A stretch of 64,000 nucleotides of DNA from Patescibacteria group bacterium (GTDB taxonomy: Bacteria > Patescibacteriota > Patescibacteriia > XYB2-FULL-38-15): assembly GCA_041737355.1 (NCBI GenBank), contig JBGSRW010000008.1, positions 91,700 to 155,699 on the forward strand. Direction: 5' to 3'. The notes under the pieces were generated by a model that made no database searches, was not told where the DNA came from, and saw only the letters and a program-made list of their open reading frames with translations. Below are positions 739 to 47,660 of this stretch, piece by piece; position 1 is the first letter of the stretch, and each line of letters begins with the position of its first letter. A program made the position numbers and the translations under genes.

Positions 739-1465
739 ATTTTTTACCTTTTACAATTATTAGCCAGCTAAATTTTATTGTGGCAGTCAGGATTCTTTTC
801 CATCGCCATGGTTGCATAAATAATCTCCAGAGCCACTCTAATCCTACTTTTTGTATCCAGCGCGGGGCGCGCCTTATTTTTCCGGCGATAAAGTCAAATG
901 CTCCCCCGACGCCCATCGCAATTATAACTGATGGCATTTTATCAAGATTTCCGGCAATAAATTTTTCCTGCCGTCTCGCACCGAGAGCGGCAAATAGAAT
1001 TTCCGGTTTTAGAATATTTATTTTTTCAATTAATCTTTCCGGGTCTTCCTCTTGCCCCAAAATATCTCCGTCGATTTTTAGCTGCGGAAATTTTTTAGCT
1101 AACGCTTCGGCTGTTTCTTCCGGCTTGGCTAAACCATTTTTTCCCGCCAGTAAAAACACTGAGTAATTTTTTTGTTCAGCCATTCGGCAGATGTCCAACA
1201 TCAAATCAACGCCCGGAATTCTTTCCGGGATAGGGCGCCGCAAGTAACGGGAAGCAAGTATCAAGCCAAAGCCGTCGGGTACGGAAAGGTCGGCCTTGTT
1301 CAAAATTTCTAAAAATTTCTTGTCTTTCCGTGTGGCCACAACCATTTCCGGATTTGGCGTTGCTATGTAATGCTGTTTAATGTCAGAAAGAAATTGATTT
1401 ATTTGTTCCAGGACTTTCTCCTTAATCAGATTATCTATTTTGACTCCGAGAATGTTAACTTTCAT
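731..1465 (-). CDS. WecB/TagA/CpsF-family glycosyltransferase
   Basis: 244 aa; C-terminal GLEWLWRL...PWRWKR is characteristic of the TagA/WecG family. Overlaps the gltX start by 8 nt. Confidence 0.8.
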   Translation of the reverse strand: MKVNILGVKIDNLIKEKVLEQINQFLSDIKQHYIATPNPEMVVATRKDKKFLEILNKADLSVPDGFGLILASRYLRRPIPERIPGVDLMLDICRMAEQKNYSVFLLAGKNGLAKPEETAEALAKKFPQLKIDGDILGQEEDPERLIEKINILKPEILFAALGARRQEKFIAGNLDKMPSVIIAMGVGGAFDFIAGKIRRAPRWIQKVGLEWLWRLFMQPWRWKRILTATIKFSWLIIVKGKKYV

Positions 1466-2010
1466 TTCAGTGGAAAGGATTTAATTGTTGAATAGACCGG
1501 ACCATCTGAAGCCAGTTTGCTTTCCATAAGTTCAATACTTTTTACTTCAAAAATTTGAGGGAGAAACTCCACGCCATCGGTTTTACACCTTGATCCGTCT
1601 TTTATCCTGCCCAAGGTCAAATGCGCCTTCCATGGCTTGGCATCAACCGGGAAATTAAGGTTTTGAAGCATGACCTCCAATTCACCAATTATGATTCTGA
1701 TTGCTTCAGAATCAATAATCTCAATAAATACGATTTTTGGTTCGCGTTCATTGGGGAAACAGCCGAACCTGCCGGTTTTCATTTCAAAAGCCGCTATTCT
1801 TTCGGTAATTTTATTAATCCCCTCTTCCGCTTGGGCAATTTGCTCTGTAGTCAGGTCTCCAAAAAAATGAAGAGTCAGATGTAGATTTTCTAGTGAGGTC
1901 CATTTGATTCCGTAATCCGAATTAAGTTTTTTCAATTCAGCAACAACTGCGGCAAGCTTTTCTTTCAAATCCGAAGGCAAATTAATAGCGATAAAGGTTC
2001 GTTTGGTCAC
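1462..2010 (-). CDS. thpR: RNA 2',3'-cyclic phosphodiesterase (2'-5' RNA ligase family, LigT/ThpR)
   Basis: 182 aa with two H-x-T-x motifs (HLTLHF, HLTLGR). A TTGCTT-17-TACAAT promoter lies upstream on the minus strand. Confidence 0.75.
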   Translation of the reverse strand: MTKRTFIAINLPSDLKEKLAAVVAELKKLNSDYGIKWTSLENLHLTLHFFGDLTTEQIAQAEEGINKITERIAAFEMKTGRFGCFPNEREPKIVFIEIIDSEAIRIIIGELEVMLQNLNFPVDAKPWKAHLTLGRIKDGSRCKTDGVEFLPQIFEVKSIELMESKLASDGPVYSTIKSFPLK

Positions 2011-13697: not shown

Positions 13698-14060
13698 CTA
13701 ACGCACGATCGAAAACTCGCTGAATCCCTGGCCACGGATGGTCACCTTGACGTTGCGTTGCTTGTAGCCGTTCTCGAAGTAGTAACCGCCCACACTCTCA
13801 GCCAAGAGCAACCCCAGTTTCGCGACATCCGCCGCCTCAATCTCGGAAGCGGTTGCCTCGTGGACAAAAATATCAATCTCTACCGGTCCATTCCTCGCGG
13901 GTTCCACCGCGGAATCCCGGGTAGTAAGGTCGATGTCTTCGTCGCTCTTAATGCCGAGCCAACCCATGTTCTTGAGGACCCCCTTGATCCTGCGAAGAAA
14001 GTAGGGATGAACCCGAGCGCGATCTCCTTCATTCCTGACCGCCAATTGCAATTTTCCCAT
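13698..14060 (-). CDS. Hypothetical protein, 120 aa (cassette D)
   Basis: GGAGGGAGG SD 6 nt before ATG 14060. TTGACA-16-TAAAAT promoter at plus 14107-14134. Hairpin plus T-run terminator around 13625-13665. No family recognised. Confidence 0.45.
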   Translation of the reverse strand: MGKLQLAVRNEGDRARVHPYFLRRIKGVLKNMGWLGIKSDEDIDLTTRDSAVEPARNGPVEIDIFVHEATASEIEAADVAKLGLLLAESVGGYYFENGYKQRNVKVTIRGQGFSEFSIVR

Positions 14061-14436
14061 TTTATCCTCCCTCTCTCGCCTCGCCACACCTTATGGCAAG
14101 CTTTGCTTATTTTAGATTAAATACGAAAAATGTCAAGATAAAAAAAGAGCGGCAAAGACTTTCGTCAACGCCGCTCAATGAACAACCGCTCTGGACGTTT
14201 CCGTCCGTTGCGGATTGCTTTCCCGCCCCTTCTCCTTACGGAGTGTTTTCCTTGGCTGGAGAAAAACCGCCGTTGCCGGCCAGGGGCAAGCCGAGTTTGC
14301 TGGTTTTCTATTCGGCTCCGGACTCGGGGCAGAGCCTACAGGAGGTGTGGGCTTGGCGGCCGGAAGGGAAGAAGTGCGCCACCGCCGAACCCGGATGAGC
14401 CAGCTACATCCCCACGGAACAAAGGCGCACTCCTGC

Positions 14437-14508
14437 GTCCCCAACGGGATTTGAACCCGTGCTTCTGACAGCAACGACCAGAGTCCTGACCGCTAGACAA
14501 TGGGGACT
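14437..14508 (-). tRNA. tRNA-like element with a degenerate anticodon loop (possible pseudo-tRNA, tRNA-Gln-like UUG)
   Basis: Perfect 7-bp acceptor stem (gtcccca/tggggac), D arm and T arm with GGTTCAAATCC. Anticodon loop cgTTGct has G at 33 and C at 37, which is non-canonical. No encoded CCA. Confidence 0.4.
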
Positions 14509-14531
14509 TCGCGGCTATTTATTGCCGCGAT

Positions 14532-14795
14532 TTACGGGTTTCTTCCCTGCGGTTGTTGGCGACTGAAGATCCAGACGAAAAATTCCCGGATATTCCGCCA
14601 GAGGAAGACGAGAACCGAACGCACAATCCGCCAGGCCGTCCGCCAGAACCAGTGCCAGATGGCAGTGATTGCCTTCTTGGCCTGCTGACCCATCCAGCGA
14701 AACGCCCGGGCCTTGCCGGTCAGGATGATGCTCGCCCCTTCGAAAGCGATGAGAAAGAGAATAATTCCGCCGATCAGGCTGGACATTTTGTCCAT
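14532..14795 (-). CDS. Small membrane protein, 2-3 TM, Trp/Arg-rich (cassette E)
   Basis: GGGAGG SD before the ATG. TTGACA-17-TATATT promoter at plus 14831-14859. Hydrophobic segments IGGIILFLIAF and SVLVFLW. Confidence 0.45.
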   Translation of the reverse strand: MDKMSSLIGGIILFLIAFEGASIILTGKARAFRWMGQQAKKAITAIWHWFWRTAWRIVRSVLVFLWRNIREFFVWIFSRQQPQGRNP

Positions 14796-14830
14796 TTCTA
14801 ACCTCCCTTACCCATTTTAGGGTACTATAA

Positions 14831-14859
14831 AATATATCAAAGATTTACGGTTTTGTCAA
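14831..14859 (-). promoter_or_regulatory. Consensus sigma70 promoter of cassette E
   Basis: TTGACA and TATATT with an exact 17-nt spacer on the minus strand. Confidence 0.45.
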
Positions 14860-14895
14860 TATCAAAACCGCTCTTTTTGGGGCGGCTTTGTTGAT

Positions 14896-16338
14896 TTACT
14901 CTTTTAATTTAGCAAAAAATGTACTGCACAAAATTACATACCCGATACCTAAAGGATGATTCAAGTATGGACTGAAAAAATTCGTTGCCAAGAGGGCGGC
15001 AATTCCGAGCATTAGGCCAAAAGGCATAAAGTCCCCTTCCCGGCCCAAAGACCAGCCAGAACGCCAAATTTTAACGATTAAAAGCATATAAACAACGAGT
15101 CCGGCCAAGCCAATTTTAAGCAGGATATCCAAATAGCCCCATTCAAAAGCATAGGTGGTAAATTGTCCGTCCGGGCTCAATTGTACGGCCCGCGGGTCGC
15201 TGCTTTTATAAGTGACGGTTGTCCCGAAACCTGAACCGACAATCGGATGTTTAATAATTGCTCTGCCGAGCGGCGGAAGAAGATCCCAGCGGCTCCGGAC
15301 AGCTGCTTCGCTTAAATCGGTCAGGCGGTCGGAGAACATTGAGGTCAGGGAGATTTTGCCGGGCGTAGGATAAGGAAATTTTACCGTGATAAAAATCGCA
15401 GCAGCCGAAATCACGAGTATTGCTAAGCCGCAAAGCCCTATTTTAAAAATTTTACCGAAAGAAAATTTTCTGATAATTAAAAATACTAAAAGAGTCAAAA
15501 GACCAAAAACCAGACCGAACCAGAAACTTCGGGAGAAGCTGACAAGGATTGATGCAAGGCATCCGGCAATGAGTAGCCAGTAGTTGGCAAGGAGCTTTCT
15601 GCTTTTATCTTTTTGCCAAATGAGCAACGCGGAAAAAATAAACAGGCCGATTAAAACATAAATCTGCGATTGAAAAAAGATCCGGTAAAAACCGCTGTCC
15701 ATTAAAGTGATCTCCCCTATCAAAAACTGCCGGAGCCAACGGTAAAGCGGATACATGGCGACTTCCAGGCCGTGGGAAAAAATATAAAGCAGGAAAAATG
15801 TTTTTAAAACAATAAGAGTAACTGAAGCCGTGAAAATCTGCATTACGTTTTCAATTTGCTCGCGCGACTTGATGGTATCGGCAAAAAGAAAAATCGCGCC
15901 GAAATACAGCCAGGCGTTAAAATCAAAAAAGACGTTTTGGAAGGAATTGCCGCGGATAATTCCCCAAACAAATCCCCAGACAATAAAGGCAAACAAAATC
16001 CACCACCATTTATTCAAGTTAAATTTAAAATCCCGTTTTTCAATTCTCCGGTACAGGCAAACCGCCATTACAACTAAAAATAAGGCAATGCGCAAAGAAA
16101 CGGAAACGCTACCGACATCAAAATAAAATAAATACCCCTTAGAGCCGATAAACAATTCCGCCAGCAAAATATAAAGCCCATAATCAAGTTTTTCTAAAGT
16201 TAAAACCAGGGTTAGGCCGAGAATAACAAAAAATGTCACCTTATTAAAAAACGGGAAAAAGTACGCGACAAACGACAATATTAGGGCAAAAGAAAAGAAA
16301 AGCAGTGAAGTTTTAAAATATTTTCCAAAGAGGTTCAT
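14896..16338 (-). CDS. O-antigen ligase / Wzy-like polymerase family membrane protein
   Basis: Polytopic; SRSFWFGLVFGLL matches the Wzy_C signature region. ATG 16338 preferred over the TTG at 16350. Flanked by glycosyltransferases. Confidence 0.65.
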   Translation of the reverse strand: MNLFGKYFKTSLLFFSFALILSFVAYFFPFFNKVTFFVILGLTLVLTLEKLDYGLYILLAELFIGSKGYLFYFDVGSVSVSLRIALFLVVMAVCLYRRIEKRDFKFNLNKWWWILFAFIVWGFVWGIIRGNSFQNVFFDFNAWLYFGAIFLFADTIKSREQIENVMQIFTASVTLIVLKTFFLLYIFSHGLEVAMYPLYRWLRQFLIGEITLMDSGFYRIFFQSQIYVLIGLFIFSALLIWQKDKSRKLLANYWLLIAGCLASILVSFSRSFWFGLVFGLLTLLVFLIIRKFSFGKIFKIGLCGLAILVISAAAIFITVKFPYPTPGKISLTSMFSDRLTDLSEAAVRSRWDLLPPLGRAIIKHPIVGSGFGTTVTYKSSDPRAVQLSPDGQFTTYAFEWGYLDILLKIGLAGLVVYMLLIVKIWRSGWSLGREGDFMPFGLMLGIAALLATNFFSPYLNHPLGIGYVILCSTFFAKLKE

Positions 16339-16372: not shown

Positions 16373-16422
16373 ATAGCGTAGCCTGGACAATCTCGTTTGG
16401 GCTAAAAAGGAGGGTGTAAGGG

Positions 16423-16890
16423 ATGAATTCCCGACTGGAGAGACTCAAGGTTACAATCGAGAAGTGCGAGAAGATCGAGGAGATCTTCACCCGGCAGCAC
16501 GTCCGCGGAACGGAGCCAAAACACTACGACGACGTGATCGCCGGTTTCGACGCTCCAGCGCGAAGCGGTTTTCTCTTGGGGTGGGATCTCGTGGTCAAGG
16601 GTTCGGCCGGCCACAGAGAAGACCTCCTGGGGCGAGAACCGACCTGCATCGAGATTTCTCTCTCCGGCGGGGAGCGGGGCGACCGGCTGATCATCATCTC
16701 CTACCTCCCAGAGACCCGCGGCTGGACGGTCGAAGGATCGACCGATATCGGTCTGGACGGGACTCCGGCCGTCCGAAATCTCGCTGCCGACTGCCGTCTT
16801 TCGGCCGGCGAGACGCGCCAAATCGGCGAGGACGAGGCGATGAAGATCATCGCCACTATCTGCGCTTTCTACAGGGCGCAGCCGGTCTAG
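16423..16890 (+). CDS. Hypothetical protein, 155 aa (cassette F)
   Basis: Strong SD. G+C-rich. Hairpin terminator (gccgact/agtcggc plus T-run) at about 16912-16956. No family recognised. Confidence 0.45.
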   Translation: MNSRLERLKVTIEKCEKIEEIFTRQHVRGTEPKHYDDVIAGFDAPARSGFLLGWDLVVKGSAGHREDLLGREPTCIEISLSGGERGDRLIIISYLPETRGWTVEGSTDIGLDGTPAVRNLAADCRLSAGETRQIGEDEAMKIIATICAFYRAQPV

Positions 16891-16946
16891 CTAGACCGCG
16901 ACCGACGGAGGAACAAACTATCGCCGACTTTTGAAGCGCAAGCTGA

Positions 16947-35764: not shown

Positions 35765-36976
35765 CTATTTTTTAAAAATAATCGCGTTTGGCAGATTACG
35801 GCCCGGTCCAACTTTATAGAAACCCTGGTAATAAAGAGCAGCCGAACCGCCACCATCCAAATTCATGGCTTGTTCCATGCCTAAAGATTCCATAACGTTC
35901 GCTAAGTCTATGACGGTTGCACTGCTTGCCACAACCAAATAGACTTTATTGCTTTTAATACCAACTCCGCCGCGATAACTTTTAACTGTCCTTTGGTTGT
36001 CATCAAGTTCTTGGGTTCCAACAATATTTGCGCTGTTAAAAATCAAAGCGGGTTTGTTACCTATCGCGGCACGGATTTTCGCGCTATAGGTATTCTCGAA
36101 AGTAGCAACATCCTTGAACGATTGCGTACTCAGCAAAAAATAGGGGTGGTTGTTGGTATCAAAAACCAAAATCGGACCGGTAGTCGGCCATTTGAGCTGA
36201 TCATCATTAATCATTTTTCCCAAACGGGAATTATAAACCGGATAAAAAAAGTAATTTTTGGTTGCCGCGCAGGAACCGTAGTCGGCCGCGCAGAAATAAC
36301 TGCCGTGGATAGCGGCAAAACCGCCGTTTGCACTCGCGTAATCTTCCAGTGGTTTTACCGGACAATCGGTTTCGCAGTCATTGTCGCTGGCTGTATCGGT
36401 AATTATCTCCAAACCGGACGAAGCCAGATCGATGGTCACAATCTTGACCGTGAAAGTTCCGCCGCCGGCTGTTACTTGTTTTTCTTCATAGCTTGAGTAG
36501 CTGTCGCTTGTCCCGCCGCCCGGCAAACTGCCAACCGGCATTAGAGACAAATTGGCCGTCGTAATGCCCAAAGACAATTGCCGCATAATGGAGAAAGCGT
36601 CTGCCGGCCGGCCGAGATAGTATTTTTTTCTGTCTTTCGGATAAATATAATATGCCTCGCCGTGCGATTCTACGTCCAGCAAAATTTTTCCGCTGACCGA
36701 AGCTGGGAAAATTGTATAACCAGTAATAAAGGCGTGAGTTGCCCCCAACCCCAATTTTCTCATGATCTCGAAAGCGTCGTCCGGACGACCGAGATAATAT
36801 CTTTTTAAATCATTTGGATAAACATACCAAGCCTCGCCGTGCGAATCAACCTGCAAAAGAATGTAACCCTTGAAACGTTCTGACAGGGTAAGCGCCTCGG
36901 ATCCCGTCGGAATCAAATTCGTAATTAAAAAAATGATTGCTAGCAACAAAAACTTCTTTTGGATAAACATGATCAA
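35765..36976 (-). CDS. Secreted protein with N-terminal tandem repeats and a C-terminal phosphodiester glycosidase (NAGPA-like) domain
   Basis: Signal peptide. Duplicated GEAWYVYPNDLKRYYLGRPDDAFEIMRKLGLG module. C-terminal NLDGGGSAALYY. Confidence 0.55.
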   Translation of the reverse strand: MIMFIQKKFLLLAIIFLITNLIPTGSEALTLSERFKGYILLQVDSHGEAWYVYPNDLKRYYLGRPDDAFEIMRKLGLGATHAFITGYTIFPASVSGKILLDVESHGEAYYIYPKDRKKYYLGRPADAFSIMRQLSLGITTANLSLMPVGSLPGGGTSDSYSSYEEKQVTAGGGTFTVKIVTIDLASSGLEIITDTASDNDCETDCPVKPLEDYASANGGFAAIHGSYFCAADYGSCAATKNYFFYPVYNSRLGKMINDDQLKWPTTGPILVFDTNNHPYFLLSTQSFKDVATFENTYSAKIRAAIGNKPALIFNSANIVGTQELDDNQRTVKSYRGGVGIKSNKVYLVVASSATVIDLANVMESLGMEQAMNLDGGGSAALYYQGFYKVGPGRNLPNAIIFKK

Positions 36977-37796: not shown

Positions 37797-37868
37797 CTCC
37801 GAGGGTGGGATTCGAACCCACGACCAACCGGTTAACAGCCGGTTGCTCTGCCGCTGAGCTACCTCGGA
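37797..37868 (-). tRNA. tRNA-Asn (GUU)
   Basis: Cloverleaf TCCGAGGTAGCTCAGCGG...CTGTTAA...GGTTCGAATCCCACCCTCGGAG. Downstream ccccc/ggggg hairpin terminator. No encoded CCA. Confidence 0.85.
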
Positions 37869-47572: not shown

Positions 47573-47660
47573 TGGCGGAGAGGGCGAGATTCGAACTCGC
47601 GATACCTTGCGGTATGCACGCTTTCCAAGCGTGTGCACTAGGCCACTATGCGACCTCTCC
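47573..47660 (-). tRNA. tRNA-Ser (GGA) with long variable arm and encoded CCA
   Basis: GGAGAGGTCGCATAGTGG...CTTGGAAA anticodon loop...GGTTCGAATCTCGCCCTCTCCGCCA. Confidence 0.85.

Follow-up and report, generated by a model that had tools for sequence, protein, structure and literature searches.

A tRNA-Glu-derived element and an adjoining candidate structured RNA form a strain-specific module in a variable small-gene locus of Patescibacteria

Results

Organization of the locus

Contig JBGSRW010000008.1 of a Patescibacteria group bacterium carries, within the 64,000-nucleotide (nt) stretch analyzed here (hereafter the window), a tRNA-Glu-derived tRNA-like element (14436..14507, minus strand) and, starting directly after its discriminator base, a candidate structured RNA of ~255 nt (14181..14435, minus strand). 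We refer to the pair, a rare insert of ~330 nt in all, as the module. The gene content of the window (priA-def-fmt, glycosyltransferases, ATP synthase, and a treble-clef zinc-finger protein) belongs to a Patescibacteria (Candidate Phyla Radiation, CPR) genome, and the source records of close relatives of the zinc-finger protein label them as Patescibacteria or Candidatus Falkowbacteria. The module occupies a variable small-gene locus between an O-antigen-ligase-like (Wzy_C) gene and fmt. Upstream of it on the same strand lies the gene for an 87-amino-acid (aa) membrane-type protein (14532..14795), taken from the list of open reading frames (ORFs) and equipped with a strong Shine-Dalgarno sequence; a promoter scan placed a promoter-like site for this gene at 14859-14831. 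Between its stop codon and the tRNA-like element, a hairpin can be read from the sequence (CGCGGC-AAUAAAUA-GCCGCG, 14510..14529), which is not followed by a U-tract and hence is not an intrinsic terminator. An intrinsic terminator, recognized by sequence reading and in folds (GAGCGGCG...UGCCGCUC then U7, 14140..14176), lies beyond the RNA. It is followed by a near-consensus promoter-like site (TTGACA, 16 nt, TAAAAT; 14109..14136, promoter scan) for the next gene downstream, an ORF for a 120-aa protein (13698-14060). All of these features are on the minus strand.

The first-pass annotation of this DNA had singled out positions 14140-14530 as a G+C-rich stretch without a credible ORF, and had proposed a candidate structured RNA beside an aberrant tRNA. 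Both proposals hold. The G+C content is 58.8% over this stretch and 61.6% over 14181-14435, against a window average of 43.9%, and no ORF within it is conserved; the RNA can now be assigned to the minus strand.

Related contigs were fetched via the flanking 87-aa protein and the zinc-finger protein. One of them, L097, comes from a separate sequencing run and is 100% identical to the window over 14100-14560, hence the region is not an assembly artefact. A second, L002, comes from a third run and carries the same module at about 93% identity. In L001, an otherwise close relative, the tRNA and the RNA are both absent: the same terminator and promoter as in the window lie 21 nt past its 86-aa gene, with the conserved terminator directly after the gene. 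The window and L001 are distinguished by an indel of ~350 nt in which the tRNA itself is included. The module is also missing from thirteen more of the fetched contigs that share the locus (among them L003-L012, L095, and L096), which brings the number of contigs without it to 14. The thirteen show no tRNA and no similarity to the RNA, and only the terminator-promoter unit recurs in them, between small-gene cassettes. Their gene order is mostly or wholly common in L003-L012, L095, and L096 (Wzy_C, 87/90-aa gene, small genes, zinc finger, fmt, def, and priA). By these alignments, either the module (~350 nt) was inserted between a gene and its terminator, or it is ancestral at this site and has been lost elsewhere.

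The tRNA-like element is a full-length cloverleaf with an aberrant anticodon loop

ARAGORN called a tRNA with anticodon UUG at 14435-14507 on the minus strand, and the Rfam tRNA model scored 47.7 bits in the window and 58.8 bits in L002 against a gathering score of 29. The first-pass annotation had placed a minus-strand cloverleaf at 14437-14508; both programs confirmed the cloverleaf, and those coordinates are off by one base. The 72-nt cloverleaf has a 7-bp acceptor stem, a D arm, a 5-bp anticodon stem, a 4-nt variable loop, and a UUCAAAU T-loop, and direct reading showed that A14, G18-G19, G53-C61, and the T-loop sequence are all retained. Its acceptor, D, and T arms and its 4-nt variable loop are almost identical to those of genuine bacterial tRNA-Glu(UUC), and divergence is found in the anticodon arm. 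The element, earlier taken for a degenerate fragment, is by this alignment a complete tRNA-Glu derivative.

The anticodon arm (14465..14481) was rightly described in the first-pass annotation as having an aberrant loop. The loop reads CGUUGCU at 14476-14470, that is, G33, G36, and C37 around UUG, with neither U33 nor a purine at position 37. The L002 copy is called tRNA-Glu(UUC) by ARAGORN and keeps the UUC anticodon and A37, but its loop (CCUUCAA) has C33 and likewise lacks U33. Thus, each copy has the cloverleaf score of a tRNA, but the combination of U33 with a purine at 37 is absent from the window copy, and the L002 copy departs from it at U33. Neither G33 or C33 nor C37 is expected in a decoding tRNA. 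Of 31 viral contigs that share the 3' 22-mer of the element, nearly all carry ordinary tRNA-Glu(UUC) genes with the loop CUUUCAC. Unlike a canonical tRNA-Glu gene, the module copy is also dispensable and strain-specific, and it lies in what would be the 3' region of the transcription unit of a protein gene.

The two other tRNAs considered in the window, tRNA-Asn (37797-37868, minus strand) and tRNA-Ser (47576-47660, minus strand), have a normal U33 and A37. The tRNA-Asn gene does not encode the 3' CCA and the tRNA-Ser gene does, so both routes of 3'-end maturation must exist in this organism.

A T-box-like pairing between the anticodon arm or loop and the RNA was considered and dropped. The window loop has a 7-bp complement at the GCAA hairpin, but this pairing was not significant: shuffled arms or loops did equally well in 4-14% of trials, and canonical tRNA-Glu arms scored the same.

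The adjoining segment is non-coding and folds on the minus strand

ORFs of 54-101 aa overlap the RNA segment on both strands. None of them is present in a collection of 15 billion proteins, neither of the two longest frames, when translated, has a relative among 5.8 billion or 1.84 billion proteins, and the segment received no gene call in the independent assembly L097. Moreover, L002 carries two 1-nt deletions, 26 nt apart, that disrupt every long frame. The 14181-14435 segment is non-coding.

Three hairpins capped by GNRA loops (GCCG-GCAA-CGGC, CUCC-GUAA-GGAG, and GGACG-GAAA-CGUCC) are found on the minus strand and none on the plus strand. Dinucleotide-shuffled sequences had a mean of 0.2 such hairpins, and three were reached in 1 of 2000 shuffles. 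Because the tRNA, the terminator, and all three GNRA hairpins are on the minus strand, this is the strand of the RNA. The folding z-score with the terminator included was -3.2 on either strand and is not decisive for the strand.

The consensus fold of the two alleles includes the following parts. Hairpin 2 (RNA positions 44-87; 14349..14392) has the stem GGGUUCGGCGG/CCGCCAAGCCC, and in single-sequence folds of both alleles its loop segment GGCGCACUUCUU can pair with RNA positions 2-12, so that a pseudoknot is possible, in which positions 2-12 would pair with 56-67 and positions 44-54 with 77-87. A four-way junction domain (14225..14287), closed by the stem GCCCCU/AGGGGC, was present in every fold; its hairpins are GCCG-GCAA-CGGC, GUUUUUCU-CCAGCCA-AGGAAAAC, and CUCC-GUAA-GGAG. 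The third GNRA hairpin, GGACG-GAAA-CGUCC (14193..14206), appeared both in the consensus fold and in the GNRA scan.

Variation between the two alleles is patchy and preserves structure

Alignment of the window with L002 covers 916 positions, of which 53 differ. Three short patches hold 40 of the differences, and elsewhere the two sequences differ by about 1.5%. One patch lies in the 87-aa gene (14630-14607, 15 differences), one in the tRNA anticodon arm (14477-14464, 8 differences), and one in the RNA (14388-14339, 17 differences). The first 43 nt of the RNA, the hairpin ahead of the tRNA (14510..14529), and the terminator-promoter unit are invariant; the same hairpin is absent from L001.

The variation hot spots in the tRNA and in hairpin 2 preserve structure. 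Within the 17-nt anticodon arm, seven positions (41%) differ, yet the stem has five pairs in both alleles despite three changes. The stem of hairpin 2 goes from GGGUUCGGCGG/CCGCCAAGCCC in the window to GGGUCUGGUGG/CCAUCAGAUCC in L002 through eight changes, including two double compensatory ones. No pair is lost and one mismatch is repaired, so that 10 pairs become 11 in an 11-pair stem. The chance of eight non-disrupting changes ranges from 0.0002 to 0.044, depending on the transition bias that is assumed; since all eight are transitions, 0.044 is the fairer figure. Over RNA positions 100-255, the six differences are all structure-neutral: GUAA becomes GCAA in L002 and keeps the GNRA pattern, one U.G pair becomes C-G, one C-G pair becomes U.G, and three changes fall in loops or junctions.

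In the patch within the 87-aa gene, 15 of the 24 bases (14607-14630) differ, and here L002 resembles the more distant L003/L012 alleles (RAVRxIL vs RIVRSVL). This resemblance points to recombination over a short tract, or else to two allele classes of old standing, and short tracts from diverged alleles would in turn suggest that a wider pool of module alleles exists beyond those sampled.

Searches for known RNA families and for relatives

Rfam was searched permissively (E<=10) on both strands of window positions 13900-14900 and of L002. Nothing beyond the tRNA was reported; in particular, there was no match to signal recognition particle (SRP) RNA, tmRNA, RNase P RNA, 6S RNA, a riboswitch, a group I intron, GOLLD, ROOL, or HEARO. 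The mascRNA model gave weak sub-threshold matches (19-21 bits), which reflect general tRNA likeness only. ARAGORN called no tmRNA in the window or in L002.

The first-pass annotation had pointed to a minus-strand 13-mer shared with Escherichia coli 4.5S RNA. This match is genuine and even extends to 14 nt (GGGATGTAGCTGGC, ffs positions 88-101, window 14412-14399 on the minus strand), but we judge it coincidental. The GGAA context GGCCGGAAGGGAAGAAG, which had been likened to SRP RNA, is also present; however, it lies on the plus strand, not on the strand of the 4.5S-like 14-mer, and closes no helix.

Relatives of the module were sought in larger collections by exact-word scans. A scan of metagenome contigs with the single word GAATAGAAAACCAGCAAAC, a scan of species-representative genomes with the single word CCCCTGGCCGGCAACGGCGG, and scans of viral sequences returned only matches confined to the word or ordinary tRNA-Glu genes; with one exact word per large collection, these scans are weak negative evidence. 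A blastn search against phage and plasmid records returned nothing, or the tRNA part only. An nhmmer search with a profile of the two RNA alleles recovered the three known copies and nothing more from all 790 kb of fetched sequence. So far, the module appears to be an orphan, known from two alleles and with no relative beyond one lineage.

Neighbouring genes and other features of the window

The 87-aa protein is kept at 67-70% identity in related loci and always adjoins the Wzy_C gene. The 120-aa protein has no detectable relative in the 5.8-billion-protein search, yet it aligns at 22-30% identity with proteins in the same position in relatives (L001 448-837; L003 3430-3771). Judged by these alignments, it is a very fast-evolving, lineage-restricted native family. 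Because both families are present in relatives, both flanking genes are native. A link between the module and the 120-aa gene was considered and dropped, since relatives without the module carry the same fast-evolving family.

The terminator-plus-promoter unit (GAGCGGCGTTGAC...GCCGCTCTTTTTTATCTTGACA...TAAAAT) is conserved and is a recurrent boundary between small-gene cassettes from Wzy_C to the zinc-finger gene and fmt. There is one copy in the window (14100-14180, minus strand), one in L001 (329-404), one each in L009-L012, and two each in L003-L007 (e.g. L003 3297-3366 and 3799-3844). No second copy of this unit or of the module was found elsewhere in the window. The number and identity of the cassettes vary among related strains at this locus. 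At L003 2450-2680, a gene called after the 90-aa gene (MKKPKKVPDW...) crosses a terminator-like hairpin (GGGGAAGA...TCTTCCCC) with a T-run before it reaches the homologue of the 120-aa family, and the gene call may be spuriously extended at its 5' end by ~77 residues.

Three further features of the window were noted. A second G+C-rich patch (16402-16934) has long overlapping ORFs on both strands; its 155-aa ORF (16423-16890, plus strand) is a singleton in the protein collection without a Pfam match, and a gene of similar size occupies the same position in relatives. Two 130-nt direct repeats at 36567-36873, 177 nt apart and 72% identical, are an internal domain duplication of a 403-aa secreted-type protein (35765-36976, minus strand). 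Lastly, a LigT-type 2H phosphoesterase/2'-5' RNA ligase family protein, an RNA end-healing type of enzyme, is encoded 12 kb away from the module (1462-2010, minus strand).

Discussion

We postulate that the module is a strain-specific non-coding cassette that is co-transcribed with the 87-aa gene, and that its tRNA-like part serves as a processing handle for RNase P and RNase Z. Transcription would start at the promoter of the 87-aa gene and read through the hairpin without U-tract. The transcript would then cross the tRNA-like element and the ~255-nt folded RNA, and would end at what was originally the terminator of the 87-aa gene. Cleavage at the handle would divide it into the mRNA, a tRNA-like RNA, and a free structured RNA with its 5' end near 14435. 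We regard this proposal as tentative, with a probability of roughly 0.45.

Several observations speak for it. The interval from the 87-aa gene to the tRNA-like element contains no promoter-like site in the promoter scan, the hairpin within it lacks a U-tract, and the terminator is the gene's own, so a single transcript is the simplest reading. The parts that RNase P and RNase Z recognize (acceptor stem, T arm, and the nucleotides of the tertiary contacts) are kept while the decoding features are lost; a processing handle is therefore the most likely role, and the element would be expected to be a substrate of both enzymes. CCA-independent 3' maturation must operate in this organism, given a tRNA-Asn gene without an encoded CCA. 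The anatomy is that of a tRNA-linked RNA: the folded segment immediately follows the 3' end of a tRNA shape within one putative unit and ends at a terminator. This anatomy is unusual for bacteria and the pattern of variation is suggestive, with the functional evidence coming from two sequences. The anatomy, the lack of coding capacity, the strand, the presence/absence polymorphism, and the variation that preserves structure are direct observations; co-transcription, the cleavages, and any activity of a released RNA are proposed here from sequence features.

Other observations weigh against this proposal. Folded alone, the RNA is only modestly unusual (z-score -1.8 in the window and -2.5 in L002). 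That the changes in the hairpin 2 stem are without exception transitions weakens the pairing test, two distinct alleles make for thin covariation evidence, and the consensus structure was built from the very alleles on which it is judged. Most relatives do without the module, which is hence dispensable. Lastly, a processing handle alone would not explain the strong divergence of the anticodon arm between the alleles. A more ambitious possibility is that the module is the first sampled member of a new class of bacterial non-coding cassettes. Each would join a tRNA-derived cloverleaf that does not decode to a GNRA-rich RNA of ~255 nt with a pseudoknot, and would pass from strain to strain by recombination within a variable locus. 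Diversifying selection would act on two fast-evolving hairpins, the anticodon arm and hairpin 2, which would determine specificity. We consider this possibility doubtful.

The strongest competitor to the processing handle is that the module is a functionless hitch-hiker, a foreign tRNA-Glu that was recombined in together with its 3' flank and is now decaying, such that the damage to the anticodon loop is pseudogene decay. The restriction of the module to one lineage, with 14 other fetched contigs having the locus without it, is consistent with such an origin, as are its G+C content, atypical for the genome, the lack of relatives, and a loop without U33 and a purine at position 37. The locus is moreover a mosaic, with the L002 patch in the 87-aa gene resembling the L003/L012 allele. 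Nevertheless, decay should strike everywhere, yet hardly any change is seen in the 5' 43 nt of the RNA or at either end of the tRNA. In addition, none of the 14 substitutions that fall in predicted helices or loops of the RNA conflicts with the structure, and GNRA loops stay GNRA. We therefore hold the hitch-hiker to be unlikely, while taking it seriously.

Alternatively, the element might be a specialised tRNA or a decoy against tRNA-targeting toxins, such as an anticodon nuclease acting on tRNA-Glu/Gln, which its altered and rapidly changing anticodon loop would evade or titrate, with the 3' RNA as its trailer. Phage tRNAs have been reported to evade anticodon nucleases through mutations in the anticodon loop (PMC10264068) and offer a precedent. 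No 17-nt stretch of the region varies more than the anticodon arm, the stem of which is still paired, and the module resides in a hypervariable locus adjoining cell-surface genes, as such a role might have it. However, the nucleotides at positions 33 and 37 do not fit a tRNA that decodes, and the anticodon changes from UUC to UUG on a tRNA-Glu body. No nuclease or defence gene was seen beside the module among the ORFs scanned, a scan that did not include a dedicated defence-gene library. Furthermore, a 255-nt RNA that is apparently conserved in structure is left without a role. Taken together, a decoy seems improbable to us.

A cis-acting leader or riboswitch of the downstream 120-aa gene is more improbable still. 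The RNA does end in a terminator 80 nt upstream of the start codon of that gene, as a leader might. Between this terminator and the gene, however, lies the near-consensus promoter (14136-14109), which separates the 120-aa gene from the RNA and is conserved in relatives without the module. Where relatives lack the RNA, their homologous genes still have this terminator-promoter unit ahead of them, and no riboswitch family matched.

Group I introns are frequent in the tRNA genes of Patescibacteria, and some of them escape the Rfam model RF00028 (PMC13011429). The RNA shares with these introns the phylum, the association with a tRNA, the size range, GNRA hairpins, and a presence/absence (indel) polymorphism, and its short motifs GCGGGAAA and AAUCCGCA resemble P/Q elements. 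Unlike these introns, though, it is not inserted in the tRNA: the tRNA is unsplit, and an RNA that starts after the discriminator base and stops before a terminator has no exon context. RF00028 was silent at E<=10, and no P7-type R/S elements were found. A nhmmer profile built from six Patescibacteria tRNA introns (Table S3 of PMC13011429) recovered each left-out intron (E 1e-13 to 1e-52) and found nothing in the window, L002, or L097. Very divergent group I introns may still escape such models (PMC13011429), but a divergent intron or a ribozyme derived from one is scarcely credible here.

The first-pass annotation had also taken the tRNA, at the edge of DNA of atypical composition in a variable locus, for the attachment-site scar of an integrative element. 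The evidence leaves very little room for this idea. The tRNA is full-length, and its 3' 23-mer is single-copy in the 64 kb at up to 3 mismatches, so that neither this search nor a repeat scan yielded a direct repeat of the tRNA 3' half. Among the ORFs scanned in 0-30 kb, Pfam detected no integrase, recombinase, or reverse transcriptase domain and returned housekeeping and glycosyltransferase genes only, and the gene tables of related loci are likewise without an integrase or recombinase. The small genes next to it belong to native families that evolve fast and have members in relatives, and the difference from L001 is an indel of ~350 nt that includes the tRNA, with no island boundary. As for a native RNA gene cluster of 4.5S-like SRP RNA and tRNA, suggested by the 14-nt identity with ffs and by the 8-mer CCGGAAGG, it has virtually no chance, because the two motifs lie on opposite strands (the 8-mer on the plus strand, closing no helix), the 14-mer falls outside the GGAA-loop region of 4.5S RNA, no SRP covariance model (RF00169, RF01854) matched either strand of either allele, and the absence of the module from the 14 contigs, close relatives among them, is impossible for an essential RNA.

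Among known systems, tRNA-linked non-coding RNA is the category that suits the element best, as a variant of it. The element resembles MALAT1/mascRNA-type elements and mRNA-tRNA co-transcripts in that a tRNA shape with intact acceptor stem and T arm and a degenerate anticodon loop is embedded in a longer putative transcript. MALAT1/mascRNA is, however, eukaryotic, and the tRNA shape ends the transcript there, whereas here it precedes a structured RNA. Small RNAs from the 3' external transcribed spacers (3'ETS) of tRNAs, of which 3'ETS-leuZ of E. coli is an example, likewise lie directly 3' of a tRNA, end at the intrinsic terminator of the operon, and are released by tRNA maturation, as the module RNA would be. 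By contrast, the module RNA greatly exceeds them in length (255 nt), is rich in G+C, and has multiple branches and GNRA loops, and its adjoining tRNA is non-working. The GOLLD and ROOL RNAs are structured non-coding RNAs often found near tRNAs in prophages and variable regions, ROOL being about 580 nt long (PMC5737381). Adjacency to a tRNA is the only feature of membership that the 255-nt module RNA shares with them; neither model matched and a prophage context was not found.

If the module is a decaying pseudogene, its lesson would be one of caution only: an aberrant tRNA with a G+C-rich flank proves neither an integration scar nor an SRP RNA. If instead the tRNA-like part is a processing handle, the module would represent in bacteria the kind of tRNA-like punctuation that is seen in eukaryotic long non-coding RNAs and in organelles. 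It would also add a structured RNA without a known family to a phylum whose RNA biology is poorly charted, and would mean that a variable locus near cell-surface genes exchanges non-coding as well as coding cassettes.

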